DNA of 9,215 nucleotides, taken from a virus (lineage: Duplodnaviria; Heunggongvirae; Uroviricota; Caudoviricetes). The stretch lies in IMG/VR virus record IMGVR_UViG_2703719355_000010. One strand, written 5' to 3'. The notes below the pieces were generated by a model that was not told where the DNA came from, made no database searches, and saw only the letters and a program-made list of their open reading frames with translations. Below are positions 3,597 through 8,543 of the stretch, one piece after another (the first letter of the stretch is position 1; every line of letters begins with the position of its first letter). The position numbers were made by a program, and so were the translations under genes.

Positions 3597-3714
3597 TGCT
3601 GCGGGTGCTTGAGGCTATCTGCCTCGGGCATGCCACCGTAAGGCAGACAGAGAAAAGCCCCAGTTAACATTACGCGTCCGGCAAGACGCTTAACATTAAT
3701 CTGAGGCCATATCT

Positions 3715-3927
3715 ATGACTTGCACATGTAGGTTAGCCTCTTACGTGCCGAAAGGCAAGGAGAAGCAGGCTATGAAGCAGCAAAAGGCGATGTTAATCGC
3801 CCTGATCGTCATCTGTTTAACCGTCATAGTGACGGCACTGGTAACGAGGAAAGACCTCTGCGAGGTACGAATCCGAACCGGTCAGACGGAGGTCGCTGTC
3901 TTCGTAGACTACGAATCTGAGAAGTAA
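3715..3927 (+). CDS. mok: Mok-like reading frame: in-frame N-terminal extension of hok (70 aa)
   Basis: ATG at 3715 in frame with hok, mirroring the mokC/hokC arrangement I recall, where the mok frame governs hok translation. Confidence 0.55.
   Translation: MTCTCRLASYVPKGKEKQAMKQQKAMLIALIVICLTVIVTALVTRKDLCEVRIRTGQTEVAVFVDYESEK
3772..3927 (+). CDS. hok: Hok/Gef-family type I toxin, 51 aa
   Basis: Product MKQQKAMLIALIVICLTVIVTALVTRKDLCEVRIRTGQTEVAVFVDYESEK is near-identical in pattern to HokC/Gef as I recall it (MKQHKAMIVALIVICITAVVAALVTRKDLCEVHIRTGQTEVAVF...). RBS AAGGAG is 9 nt upstream. The predicted mRNA 5' end (3601-3614) pairs with the 3' end (3977-3991), the fold-back arrangement typical of hok mRNAs. 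Confidence 0.85.
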   Translation: MKQQKAMLIALIVICLTVIVTALVTRKDLCEVRIRTGQTEVAVFVDYESEK

Positions 3928-5086: not shown

Positions 5087-5376
5087 TGGTGGATTTACGT
5101 AAAGCGGCGCGGGGGCAGATGTGCACCGTCAGAATTCCTGGCTACTGCAATCACGATCCGGAAACGTCTGTGCTGGCGCATTACCGACTGGCGGGAACGT
5201 GCGGAACAGCGATAAAGCCACACGATATGCAGGCAGCGATTGCCTGTAGCTCGTGCCATGATTTAATCGACGGGCGGGTAAAAACCGGCGATTACACCAA
5301 AGAAGAATTACGCCTGATGCATGCAGAAGGTGTTTTTCGCACACAAGAAATCTGGAGAAAGGAGGGATATTTATGA
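5086..5376 (+). CDS. YbcO-like protein, 96 aa (DUF1364, putative metal-binding nuclease)
   Basis: Product MVDLRKAARGQMCTVRIPGYCNHDPETSVLAHYRL...IACSSCHDLIDGR closely follows the pattern of DLP12 YbcO as I recall it (LRKAARG...C.VRIPG.CN..PETSVLAH.RL...IACS.CHD.ID), including the conserved Cys/His positions. Overlapping start and stop with both neighbours. Confidence 0.75.
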   Translation: MVDLRKAARGQMCTVRIPGYCNHDPETSVLAHYRLAGTCGTAIKPHDMQAAIACSSCHDLIDGRVKTGDYTKEELRLMHAEGVFRTQEIWRKEGYL

Positions 5377-5927
5377 TTTACCCAACGAATACAGGAAAAA
5401 GCGGAGAACACCTTCGTCTCACCACGCTGGAAAGTGTCTGGATTCAGGGAAAACTACGTATGTGGGGGCGCTGGTCGTATATTGGCGGCGGTAAGACGGG
5501 AAATATGTTTAACCAGTTGCTGACCTCTAAAAAGCTAACAAAAACGGCAATTAATGAGGCGCTCCGGAGGATGAAAAAAGCAGGTCTGGACAAACCTGAA
5601 CTTGAGGCTTTTTTGCGGGATATGATCAACGGCAAGCAAAAAAGCTGGCTGGTGCATTGTACTGATGCAGAGGCGTTATGCATTGATCGGGTGATTAGTG
5701 AAGTGCTGGCAGAACACCCAGGATTGATTTGTATCCTCCGGCAAAGATATGAAGGGCGGGGGATGAGTAAGCGCAAAATGGCTGAATTGCTAAATGATGC
5801 ACACCCTGAGTGGTGTTTTCGGACGTGCTGCAGTCGGGTAGATGTATGGCTAAATCTTGCTGAATATATGCTCTATCTGCCGATGCGTGATGCATTCTCT
5901 TCCGGGTATTTAAAAACTGTCTGTTGA
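5373..5927 (+). CDS. Putative late-gene antiterminator Q (non-lambda Q family), 184 aa
   Basis: ATG at 5373 with GGAGGG 6 nt upstream. Sits in the Q position: downstream of nin-type genes and immediately upstream of a strong promoter plus short-transcript terminator. An N-terminal W-G-x-W motif resembles what I recall of Q82/QuuD-type proteins. Family not verified. Confidence 0.55.
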   Translation: MIYPTNTGKSGEHLRLTTLESVWIQGKLRMWGRWSYIGGGKTGNMFNQLLTSKKLTKTAINEALRRMKKAGLDKPELEAFLRDMINGKQKSWLVHCTDAEALCIDRVISEVLAEHPGLICILRQRYEGRGMSKRKMAELLNDAHPEWCFRTCCSRVDVWLNLAEYMLYLPMRDAFSSGYLKTVC

Positions 5928-5953
5928 CTCAATCTGTTATCCGGGGCTATATT
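5924..5953 (+). promoter_or_regulatory. Candidate late promoter (PR'-like): -35 TTGACT at 5924-5929, 18-nt spacer, -10 TATATT at 5948-5953
   Basis: Near-consensus sigma-70 hexamers overlapping the Q stop codon, followed by a hairpin at 5961-5978 (CGCCAG-CAAAAT-CTGGCG) in the initially transcribed region, as expected around a Q-utilisation/pause site. Confidence 0.5.
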
Positions 5954-6015
5954 CCTCACGCGCCAGCAAAATCTGGCGTCGGGATTAGGAACCCCGGATA
6001 GAGACCGCGACAGAC

Positions 6016-6040
6016 ACACGCCGCGAGCGTGTTTTTTATT
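6016..6040 (+). terminator. tR'-like intrinsic terminator downstream of the late promoter
   Basis: Hairpin ACACGC-CGCGA-GCGTGT followed by TTTTTATT, about 60-80 nt downstream of the predicted start site, analogous to the lambda PR'-tR' short transcript. Confidence 0.55.
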
Positions 6041-6200
6041 GTCGTATGCACGCGCACATCTGAATTATGGTGGGGCGTATGGGGGAGCTGAAAAGCTCGC
6101 CGGTTGGTTTCCCGGTAGTTCCTAACCCTGTACGTCTCACCACCCGATGATTAGGAACCTGACGGTGGTGATGGTTTAGAAACCACCAGAGGGCGTCATT

Positions 6201-6782
6201 ATGACAACTCAAATTTCTGTTGAAACTCTCTCCCCGATCACCCATAACCAGATTCCTGTTATTACCACCGAACTTTTGGCGCAGTTGTACGGTGCTGGAG
6301 TTAAGAACATTCAAAATAACTACGCCAGAAATGCTGAGCGCTTTATTGAAGGAAAGCATTTTTTCAAAGTGGCTGGCGATGCCCTGAAAAATTTGCGGGT
6401 AGCTTTAAACTACTCACAAAATTTGCAACTATCTTTAAGAGGGTTACAAATTTCCCCGAAAGCCCGCTCCCTCATCCTCTGGACAGAACGCGGAGCAGCC
6501 CGTCATGCCAAAATGCTGGAAACCGATCAGGCGTGGGATGTGTTCGAAAAGCTGGAAGACTGCTATTTCAGACAAAAGGATCCGTCAGCGCCAGTTTCAT
6601 GCCAGAAAAGTTACGACACGCGAGTTCTCTGTTATCAGAGAGGCGGTGTCACTGTTTCCACAATTCAGTTACGGGATGATGATATTGTTATTTCCCTTGA
6701 GTCATGGCTGGAACTGGCGAGAGCCAATGGTTGGTTTGTTGTTCGCAGAGATAAACTGGTGGAAAGGTTGATGCAGCTTTAA
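6201..6782 (+). CDS. ORF6N-domain protein (KilA-N-related, antirepressor-like DNA-binding domain), 193 aa
   Basis: N-terminal LLAQLYGAGVKNIQNNYARNAERFIEGKHFFKV matches the ORF6N signature I recall (LAELYG...N.AVKRN.ERFPEDFMF). ATG at 6201 with a GAGGG RBS. Confidence 0.65.
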   Translation: MTTQISVETLSPITHNQIPVITTELLAQLYGAGVKNIQNNYARNAERFIEGKHFFKVAGDALKNLRVALNYSQNLQLSLRGLQISPKARSLILWTERGAARHAKMLETDQAWDVFEKLEDCYFRQKDPSAPVSCQKSYDTRVLCYQRGGVTVSTIQLRDDDIVISLESWLELARANGWFVVRRDKLVERLMQL

Positions 6783-6879: not shown

Positions 6880-6902
6880 AGCCACCGGAAGGTGGTTTTT
6901 TT
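6880..6902 (+). terminator. Intrinsic terminator after the ORF6N gene
   Basis: Hairpin CCACC-GGAA-GGTGG followed by seven T residues. Confidence 0.65.
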
Positions 6903-7025
6903 GTGTCCGTAATATACAGCAGCGCAATAAATTCGCTGGTGGTTATTAATACCGTTCTTTCAGCTTGCTGGCTTTTTCGACAAGAGTTATTGGTATGTCA
7001 CGTTAACCGGAAAGGGTAAAAAGAC

Positions 7026-7223
7026 ATGCTGAAACAGCAGGATATGACAGAAACCGCCAGAGTTGTGTTTGATGAATTAAGCGTTACCGAACCGGCGACA
7101 GTCGGGGAGATTGCGCAGAATACTTACCTTTCACGCGAACGCTGCCAGTTAATACTGACCCAGCTGGTTATGGCGGGTCTGGCAGACTATCAGTGCGGTT
7201 GTTACAGACGCATTCAGTCCTGA
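7026..7223 (+). CDS. Small winged-helix regulatory protein, 65 aa (PapI/FaeA-like)
   Basis: TVGEIAQNTYLSRERCQLILTQLVMAGLA resembles the PapI/FaeA pattern I recall (TAEIAEAL.VT.YQAR.YLL.LEKAG). Start could be ATG 7026 or the internal ATG at 7041. Confidence 0.45.
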   Translation: MLKQQDMTETARVVFDELSVTEPATVGEIAQNTYLSRERCQLILTQLVMAGLADYQCGCYRRIQS

Positions 7224-7256
7224 AGGCTTTTTATTTGTGGTAAATGGGCGGCTGGT

Positions 7257-7265
7257 GGGGGGGGG
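7257..7265. repeat. Homopolymeric G9 tract in the intergenic region upstream of the AraC-family gene
   Basis: Nine consecutive G residues read directly, about 30 bp upstream of a candidate promoter (TTGATG at 7294-7299, TATAAT at 7319-7324). Confidence 0.9.
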
Positions 7266-7359
7266 CGGCACCTGTCAGTCCTTTGCTTATGTGTTGATGA
7301 TAATTTACCTTTTGGGGCTATAATTGAGCTAACCAATTGCTAATGAAAGTAAAATTATA

Positions 7360-8073
7360 ATGGCTGTTGTCTGTTCAGTTATCATGGTTTGCTCCCCAAT
7401 TAATATTTTTCTTGAAAAGGATACGTTGTCACTTAAGCCAGGCTCAGTCGTTCTGGCCACCAAATGCATCAGGGAGCTTTTCCTTATGCATTATGGCAAA
7501 GTTAAAATTGTCGATATAAGCGAATCCGTCGTAAGTCAATATCTGGAAAGTCAGCATAAGCTGACGAGGACTCGTCTGACTGACATTCCGCTTTACCTGT
7601 TGCTGGAACCCAACAATCCTGCGTTGGCTGCGGCTTTAATTACCAGCCAGGGATTTTCCGGAGAGGTCACGGATATGTTTCTTATGATGGCCTGCCTGTC
7701 TCTGTTTGAAACAGATGAACGGATGTCATTGTTTTTAAGTGGATGTTTATCCAGCATAAGTGCCAAAGTCAGGGCGATAATTCAGACAGATATATCAGCA
7801 AGCTGGACGCTTGGTGCGATTGCTCTACAGTTGCATATGAGTGAGAGTTTGTTAAAGACAAAACTGAAAAATGAAGGGGGCATGTTCAGTCGCTTGTTGC
7901 TGGAAGAGCGGATGCGTGTTGCTGTAAATATGTTATGTTCCCGACATGGATATGGACAGGCTGTAGCAGAAAAATGCGGTTATTCAAGCAGGTCCTACTT
8001 TATTTCTGTATTTCACCGCTATTATGGCTTCCCGCCAGACAGATATGTATCCAGGCAAGGGCTTGATTATTGA
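7360..8073 (+). CDS. AraC/XylS-family transcriptional regulator, 237 aa (prophage-encoded; PatE/Psr-like class)
   Basis: The C-terminal 100 aa carry the tandem HTH signature of the AraC family (...SRSYFISVFHRYYGFPPDRY). Start codon is uncertain: ATG 7360, 7387 and 7486 are all in frame and none has a strong RBS. Confidence 0.8.
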   Translation: MAVVCSVIMVCSPINIFLEKDTLSLKPGSVVLATKCIRELFLMHYGKVKIVDISESVVSQYLESQHKLTRTRLTDIPLYLLLEPNNPALAAALITSQGFSGEVTDMFLMMACLSLFETDERMSLFLSGCLSSISAKVRAIIQTDISASWTLGAIALQLHMSESLLKTKLKNEGGMFSRLLLEERMRVAVNMLCSRHGYGQAVAEKCGYSSRSYFISVFHRYYGFPPDRYVSRQGLDY

Positions 8074-8101: not shown

Positions 8102-8177
8102 GGCCCTTTAGCTCAGTGGTGAGAGCGAGCGACTCATAATCGCCAGGTCGCTGGTTCAAATCCAGCAAGGGCCACCA
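8102..8177 (+). tRNA. tRNA with anticodon CAU; sequence pattern of tRNA-Ile2 (lysidine type, ileX-like) rather than tRNA-Met
   Basis: Cloverleaf folded by hand: acceptor GGCCCTT/AAGGGCC, D-stem GCTC/GAGC, anticodon loop CTCATAA, T-loop TTCAAAT, encoded CCA. Close to my recollection of E. coli ileX. Confidence 0.8.
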
Positions 8178-8178
8178 A

Positions 8179-8255
8179 CCGCCACTAGCTCATCAGGAAA
8201 GAGCGTCAACCCTTTAAGTTGAGTGTGCGAGGTTCGAGTCCCCGGTGGCGGTCCA
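8179..8255 (+). tRNA. Atypical tRNA or tRNA-like gene; anticodon loop CCTTTAA (nominal anticodon UUU, Lys) with C instead of U at position 33 and an unusual D-loop
   Basis: 7-bp acceptor stem CCGCCAC/GTGGCGG, T-loop TTCGAGT, encoded CCA, 5-bp anticodon stem TCAAC/GTTGA. Deviations: 5' C, D-loop ATCAGGAAA, C33, one A-C mismatch in the T-stem. May be a degenerate or specialised tRNA. Confidence 0.5.
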
Positions 8256-8257
8256 GT

Positions 8258-8333
<76 letters not shown>

Positions 8334-8336
8334 TAT

Positions 8337-8411
<75 letters not shown>

Positions 8412-8470: not shown

Positions 8471-8543
8471 TTATGAATGATCGCTTTTTTTTGCAAAATT
8501 GCTGTGCAGAAATACTAACCTTCGGGCAGGCGATCATTCATAA
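8471..8543 (+). repeat. Perfect 14-bp inverted repeat (TTATGAATGATCGC / GCGATCATTCATAA) separated by 45 nt
   Basis: Read directly; the loop contains a T8 run. Could form a long stem-loop in RNA or be a protein-recognition or recombination site. Confidence 0.5.

Follow-up and report, generated by a model that had tools for sequence, protein, structure and literature searches.

The G run and its surroundings in a lambdoid prophage

The stretch of DNA analyzed here (hereafter the window; 9,215 nucleotides, considered at its full length) is identical to an entire draft contig, CYGN01000105.1, of the E. coli assembly GCA_001286505.1. The two ends of this contig (positions 1–112 and 9108–9215) are inverted copies of one sequence, which matches the end of an IS1203-like IS3-family element located after this region in strain Z1323CEC0019. 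This match indicates that the draft contig was broken at IS copies on both sides.

The gene order of the window is that of the early-to-late transition, or the start of the late region, of a lambdoid prophage: hok/sok, DUF1367, YbcO and a DUF1133 Q-type antiterminator are followed by a late-promoter-like site, an IsrK-family RNA, a C4-type RNA, an ORF6N gene, a small winged-helix-like ORF, the G run that is the subject of this work, an AraC-type regulator gene, four tRNA genes and a holin gene. The succession of Q-like DUF1133 gene, small ORF, AraC-type gene, tRNA genes and holin gene is common to the window, to the O157:H7 strains EDL933 and 86-24, to O145 and to other serotypes. The features referred to below are as follows (strand given where it matters to the argument):

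3603–3927: hok/sok type I toxin–antitoxin module (sok RNA, 110 bits at 3603–3777)
5373–5927: DUF1133 Q-type antiterminator (Pfam)
5924–5953: late-promoter-like site, directly after the Q-like gene
5947–6000: C4 a1/b1 target motifs, upstream of the ORF6N gene
5960–6037: IsrK-family Hfq-binding RNA and terminator (69 bits)
6063–6147: C4-type antisense RNA (67 bits)
6201–6782: ORF6N gene
6935–6942, + strand: second Chi octamer, in the same orientation as the one at 7251–7258, at the left edge of the conserved small-ORF block
7026–7223, + strand: 65-aa ORF, weakly TrmB-like (winged helix; TrmB E=0.003, below the Pfam cut-off)
7210–7232, + strand: degenerate intrinsic-terminator-like hairpin, GCATTCAGTCCTGAAGGC followed by T5, overlapping the stop codon of the small ORF
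7237–7323, + strand: 28-codon GTG-started frame across the G run, most likely a non-coding remnant
7251–7258, + strand: Chi octamer GCTGGTGG (exact match), whose last two G's are the first two of the run
7257–7265, + strand: G9 homopolymer (sequence), a derived, length-polymorphic allele of the 9-mer GGGTGTTAG
7297–7324, + strand: predicted sigma-70 promoter, ATGATA / 16-nt spacer / TATAAT (consensus match)
7360–8073, + strand: AraC-type regulator of 237 aa, of the prophage-encoded Psr/PatE group (Pfam and identity)
8102–8411: four tightly packed tRNA genes (CAT anticodon, Lys-TTT, Thr-TGT and Gly-TCC), between the regulator and holin genes

Several of these features have counterparts elsewhere. 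A Hok/Gef ORF is annotated in a relative at the position matching the hok/sok module of the window, and the arrangement at 5924–6147 resembles a P1/P7-type c4–ant immunity module set in the late leader. After the ORF6N module, a hairpin followed by a T run (6882–6902) is found in all four prophage types compared (the window, L052, L053 and L054), each time as a G+C-rich stem followed by T6–T8, and the sequence of the stem differs in each of the four; terminator function thus appears to be kept at this position while the sequence is replaced. As for the tRNA module, ARAGORN assigns the gene with a CAT anticodon to Met and RefSeq assigns it to Ile, and the same module carries Ile and Arg tRNA genes instead in the O157:H7 copies.

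The regulator bears a C-terminal AraC-type helix–turn–helix DNA-binding domain, recognized by two Pfam models above their gathering scores (HTH_AraC PF00165, 3.4e-13; HTH_18 PF12833, 9.8e-10). It is like PsrA, PsrB and PatE of EHEC O157:H7 in this domain, in its location in the late region of a lambdoid prophage downstream of Q, and in its identity at 236 of 237 positions to the EDL933 protein WP_000301797.1 (encoded at 1,905,274–1,905,987). Going by map position, we take this EDL933 copy, at 1.905 Mb, to be possibly psrB (Z2104). A paralogue of the window's regulator, 91% identical to it, also exists, which matches the 90% identity reported for PsrA and PsrB (PMC10877973). These prophage-encoded AraC-like proteins, PsrA, PsrB and PatE, act on gadE/hdeA and on LEE secretion, and psrA (z1789) has been placed in OI-50 (PMC10877973); a 2026 paper gives psrA as ecs1087 of the Sakai prophage Sp4, and the locus names used for psrA in the literature thus disagree. 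A cluster look-up for the name of the window's regulator returned generic names only. In the EDL933 prophage adjoining potAB, which we take to be OI-50, no AraC-like gene was found between the antiterminator gene and the TerB pseudogene (positions 1,630,000–1,679,999 searched).

A derived homopolymer of variable length

Positions 7257–7265 of the + strand read as nine G's, in the context GGCTGGT-GGGGGGGGG-CGGCACC. The run lies upstream of the AraC-family gene, in a gap of 136 bp delimited by the end of the small winged-helix ORF at 7223 and the start of the AraC-like gene at 7360, and is separated from the end of the small ORF by 33 bp that consist of the terminator and a Chi remnant. An earlier note on this DNA, made from the sequence, had described both the G9 tract and the 136-bp intergenic region, and on both points our reading agrees with it. 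The run is the sole homopolymer of at least nine bases in the window, the next longest being a T8 at 8485–8492. In dinucleotide-preserving shuffles of the window, 0.17 matches to G8 or longer are expected per shuffle, and two overlapping G8 matches (equivalent to one G9) were reached in 7 of 200 shuffles.

Comparison with homologous loci established that the run is derived from the non-repetitive 9-mer GGGTGTTAG. Indeed, this 9-mer occupies the exact position of the run in 28 of 40 homologous loci from IMG/VR, on many diverse backgrounds, and in all nine contigs recovered by a metagenome scan (the scan of GTDB species-representative genomes gave no match); an exact 74-mer containing it was found in 534 records from complete E. 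coli genomes. By contrast, the poly-G allele is confined to copies in which the regulator is identical to that of the window at 234 or more of 237 positions, and the 91%-identical paralogue carries the non-repeat allele. The poly-G copies fall into two haplotypes: in haplotype A, to which the window belongs, the run is followed by CGGC, the stem of the upstream terminator contains a mismatch and T5 replaces T6; in haplotype B, the run is followed by CGAC and the terminator stem is intact. One aspect of this origin is odd and speaks against a neutral one: the change from the 9-mer involves four substitutions to G within 9 nt.

To count the alleles, 5426 complete genomes were searched for exact matches to queries of 72–75 nt that differ only in the run. 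G7 was found in 28 records, G8 in 287, G9 in 13 and G10 in none, so that 41 of the 328 poly-G records (~12%) are off the modal length. In IMG/VR, haplotype A comprises one G7, ten G8 and three G9 copies, and haplotype B comprises 31 G7, three G8, two G9 and one G10; the modal length is thus G8 in haplotype A and G7 in haplotype B. Even among the ten contigs that encode exactly the same protein as the window, the run varies from G6 (one contig) through G7 (four, one of them with a further deletion) and G8 (three) to G9 (two, including the window). Furthermore, in 3-kb comparisons with EDL933, the run was the only indel in all four cases that differed in length, beside 0–22 SNPs. The contrast between these varying G lengths and the 9-mer GGGTGTTAG, which is exact in 534 records, identifies the run as a genuine hotspot.

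The T8 at 8485–8492 gave match lengths of 72–75 nt for a 74-nt query in complete genomes, although SNPs confound these length bands and the lineages concerned are more divergent. Length variation of a homopolymer may therefore not be unique to the G run in these prophages.

The lengths of the run are inherited within clones. Three assemblies of strain 86-24, which bear two different accession series and strain labels, have G9, as do two OkiPb sister isolates. Likewise, O145 accounts for 14 of the 28 records with an exact G7 match, and these genomes, several of which form near-identical clonal sets, have G7 in common. This is the pattern expected if slippage occurs now and then as strains diverge, rather than scrambling the lengths rapidly, and the clonal stability of 86-24 and O145, as read from consensus assemblies, argues against very fast switching. 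The earlier note held that the tract is prone to slipped-strand mispairing, and the occurrence of G6, G7, G8, G9 and G10 in otherwise near-identical copies bears this out; we infer that slippage is the cause of the length changes, although part of the variation could reflect sequencing error and not biology. The G9 of the window is within the range in which G/C tracts are expected to slip frequently (~8–9 or more), for which the modes of its relatives, G8 and G7, are borderline. In its behavior the run is like the homopolymer indel hotspots of mismatch-repair-proficient E. coli, where a run of 7–10 bases changes by ±1 far more often than its surroundings and where, as here, the length variants are inherited clonally. 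It differs from them in its composition: G/C runs this long are unusual in E. coli DNA, in keeping with the low number of matches expected in shuffles.

Whether the window itself truly has nine G's must be considered separately. Its six nearest relatives of the same prophage subtype (L001, L027, L029, L091, L098 and L099), which are only 2–8 SNPs away, all have G8, and the G9 of the window is therefore either a minority allele or an assembly error; the earlier note's caution that the true length is uncertain was thus well founded. Both a recent +1 event and an error are possible. That the ninth G is an assembly or sequencing error, the true allele being G8, is less likely than not, though it deserves serious consideration: besides the six closest relatives, it is favored by the predominance of G8 in the window's haplotype (287 records against 13) and by the nature of the window, a short draft contig broken at IS copies. 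Against it, G9 is real and heritable elsewhere, as seen in 86-24 and in the OkiPb isolates, and several draft whole-genome assemblies also differ in tract length. Such an error would concern the length of the run in the window only, and would be compatible with the reading of the locus that we favor below.

We also considered whether the run belongs to a nucleic acid structure. No Rfam family matches at the run, the RNA fold around it is no better than those of shuffled sequences (z=+0.64, computed without quadruplex terms), and such inverted and direct repeats as occur nearby are short and no more than expected by chance; a structured RNA element was rejected on account of the fold score and the repeats. 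A variant of this idea is that, from G8 upwards, the G-rich stretch forms a G-quadruplex or another non-B structure, in the non-template strand or in the read-through RNA, and thereby affects transcription or recombination near Chi. A tract of at least G8 followed by CGG does allow a minimal two-tetrad quadruplex, (GG-N1)x3-GG, which neither G7 nor the ancestral allele allows, and ViennaRNA switches to a quadruplex fold when quadruplex terms are included. However, two-tetrad forms are marginal, the energy model is generous, the fold obtained without these terms is unremarkable, and G7, which does not permit the structure, is the modal allele of one haplotype. We consider this proposal highly improbable.

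Junction, terminator and predicted promoter around the run

The run lies at a mosaic junction. The Chi octamer at its start has a counterpart at 6935–6942 that is invariant in four prophage types, among which homology starts ~6 bp upstream of it. The block bracketed by the two octamers, i.e. the small ORF and the terminator-like hairpin, is present in well over a thousand E. coli genomes and in Stx2 phages. On the other side, homology to prophages that carry other cargo ends at the 7251–7258 Chi or within ~40 bp of it (7259–7296): at 7259 in prophages that continue with a DUF3927 C-terminal fragment and iraM, and at ~7270–7296 in those that continue with a DNA methyltransferase gene, the weak homology in the latter case stopping at ~7291–7296. 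The psr-specific DNA begins approximately at the predicted −35 element. Because homology ends near Chi and psr-specific DNA starts only at about the −35 element, the run sits in left-over linker DNA at the junction of two modules, outside the module of the regulator. The mosaic break-points coincide with both Chi octamers, but chance may account for this: the octamer is frequent in E. coli DNA, and 11 of 200 shuffles also contained two Chi sites in 9.2 kb. With one exact Chi that overlaps the beginning of the G tract and another at the far edge of the block, the arrangement is like that of Chi hotspots and of the linkers found at lambdoid mosaic junctions; the activity of these octamers as Chi, with RecBCD-dependent stimulation of recombination, is putative.

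The conserved block itself is not identical in all copies. Many lambdoid and Stx prophages, Stx2 phages included, have its 65-aa ORF downstream of Q; this ORF is labeled ‘TrmB family’ in some RefSeq records. According to the alignment, the ancestral form of the hairpin that follows is a perfect stem, GCCTTCAGTCCTGAAGGC, with T6, as compared to the C-to-A stem mismatch and the T5 of the window's haplotype; when the ~51-nt terminator segment was folded, the energy was −11.7 kcal/mol for the ancestral form and −5.3 kcal/mol for the window. The weakened terminator could let more upstream transcription pass into the regulator gene. The presence of a weakened terminator upstream of the run in the window's poly-G haplotype means that the region may not be functionally inert, and this counts against a neutral reading of the locus.

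The 28-codon frame that spans the run offers another conceivable role, namely that of a translational frame switch in which G9 restores the ancestral frame. Indeed, the frame read with G9 is the one read with the ancestral 9-mer, and both encode a hydrophobic product of 28 aa, which is truncated by the frame shift in G8 and G7. The first eight codons (VVNGRLVG) are shared with the DUF3927 C-terminal remnant of other prophages (the L052 fragment matches DUF3927 with E=1.6e-7). Yet only these eight codons resemble a known family, the peptide of the window had no Pfam hit, and the frame has a GTG start and a weak ribosome-binding site and overlaps the psr promoter. In addition, G8 and G7, in which the frame is shifted, greatly outnumber the other lengths. 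The small ORF was therefore rejected as the main explanation, for want of Pfam support and on account of the frame-shifted common alleles, and a frame switch is scarcely credible.

The best sigma-70-like site in the gap, which matches at 10 of 12 positions, consists of ATGATA (7297–7302) and TATAAT (7319–7324); TTGATG (7294–7299), as read from the sequence, is an alternative −35 element. Depending on which of the two hexamers is taken as the −35, the end of the run is 31 or 28 bp upstream of it, in agreement with the ~30 bp given in the earlier note for a candidate −35. Relative to the predicted transcription start, the run extends from about −66 to −74. With respect to this promoter, which is a consensus prediction, the run is thus outside both the −35/−10 spacer and the core promoter, and the only coding sequence that it could lie in is the doubtful 28-codon ORF. 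The promoter hexamers are kept in nearly all psr-type alleles of the alignment. A distant BLAST search for divergent copies of the psr promoter retrieved junction homologies only, and no divergent promoters.

The reading that we consider probable is that the G run is a derived, slippage-prone homopolymer in left-over DNA of a mosaic junction, with little or no effect on the regulator. The junction joins a conserved block (small winged-helix ORF, terminator and Chi) to a swappable cargo module, which consists here of the promoter, the Psr-type AraC regulator gene and the tRNA genes. In one lineage, that of the PsrB-like paralogue, the GGGTGTTAG directly after Chi would have turned into a pure G run, the length of which would afterwards have drifted between G6 and G10 by single-base replication slippage, with assembly error possibly adding noise. 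The regulator would be transcribed from its own predicted promoter (7297–7324) in the lysogen, and by Q-antiterminated read-through from the upstream late promoter during lytic growth. The length changes would most likely be neutral, or nearly so, for the expression of the regulator. Several observations suggest this. First, natural alleles include the non-repeat form as well as runs of 7, 8, 9 and 10 G's. Second, the promoter does not need the run, since most paralogous promoters hold GGGTGTTAG in its place. Third, no particular spacing is conserved, since the common length differs between the haplotypes. Finally, with its location outside the predicted core promoter, the run looks like an ordinary slippage-prone remnant rather than a demonstrated on/off switch.

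The earlier note had proposed that the tract could act as a phase-variable switch on the regulator, and this part of it found no support. A switch function is unlikely in view of the position of the run, and the non-repeat allele of most paralogous promoters, the different modes of the two haplotypes and the stability of the lengths within clones also go against it. A modest tuning effect on the expression of the regulator may nevertheless exist, by analogy with other systems. In its most elaborate form, this alternative would make the run a contingency or ‘rheostat’ element that produces heritable, reversible differences in the level of the Psr-type regulator in EHEC populations: slippage would alter the distance or helical phase of upstream DNA relative to the psr core promoter, or else DNA structure or H-NS binding, and the proposed outcome would be differences in type III secretion and in resistance to acid. 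In other bacteria, homopolymers upstream of a −35 element can tune transcription (as in H. pylori sabA). In the present case, near-identical genomes differ in the length of the run, and no other site in its neighborhood varies as much. The run is also located in the DNA upstream of the promoter of a regulator that belongs to a family acting on gadE/hdeA and on LEE secretion (PMC10877973). To the arguments already given from position, paralogues, haplotypes and clones (86-24 and O145) must be added that the 33 bp of terminator and Chi remnant between the preceding ORF and the run leave little room for an upstream activator site, that the tracts are short (modal G7–G8) for mismatch-repair-proficient E. 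coli, and that a literature search retrieved no paper linking psr genes to phase variation. We therefore regard a rheostat as improbable. The same applies, with still greater reserve, to the more specific proposal that the run is a slipped-strand tuning element in which lengths of G6–G10 set the level of the PsrB-type regulator and which may have been created or kept beside Chi, where RecBCD processing and cargo swapping occur.

Relation to known repeat-mediated systems and implications

Two groups of known systems help to situate the run. The poly-C tract of Bordetella fim, the poly-G tract of Neisseria porA and the poly-C tract of opc are, like the present run, G/C homopolymers located upstream of a gene and polymorphic in length between strains. 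Those tracts lie between the −35 and −10 elements, or between an activator site and the −10 element, so that the gain or loss of one base alters the geometry of the promoter. By contrast, the run described here is shorter, is 28–31 bp upstream of the predicted −35 element, and belongs to a promoter whose ancestral form is devoid of the repeat. The poly-T tract of H. pylori sabA and the repeats of N. meningitidis nadA and nspA provide another parallel, insofar as a repeat upstream of the −35 element could in principle tune expression. The sabA, nadA and nspA tracts are reportedly longer than the present run and highly variable between strains, with a measured effect on expression.

The G run is thus a further example of a hypermutable homopolymer. 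It is located at a mosaic junction bounded by Chi, and the prophage regulator gene downstream of it is related to virulence. Beyond the run itself, the comparison shows a place of cargo exchange in the leader of the late operon, marked by a conserved block that is bounded by two Chi sites.

Should the run do no more than drift, it calls for caution, being both hypervariable and error-prone and lying upstream of a regulator gene of EHEC prophages that is related to virulence: outbreak genomics will obtain indel calls there that are spurious or homoplasic, and its length should not be taken from a single assembly. If, on the other hand, its length tunes the regulator, the control of acid resistance and type III secretion in O157:H7 and its relatives would have an additional, stochastic component. 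Such tuning would stand out in E. coli, where phase variation through repeats is uncommon; to our knowledge, slipped-strand tuning has rarely been described in this species. Within EHEC, cells or strains would then differ heritably in their acid resistance and in their LEE type III secretion.
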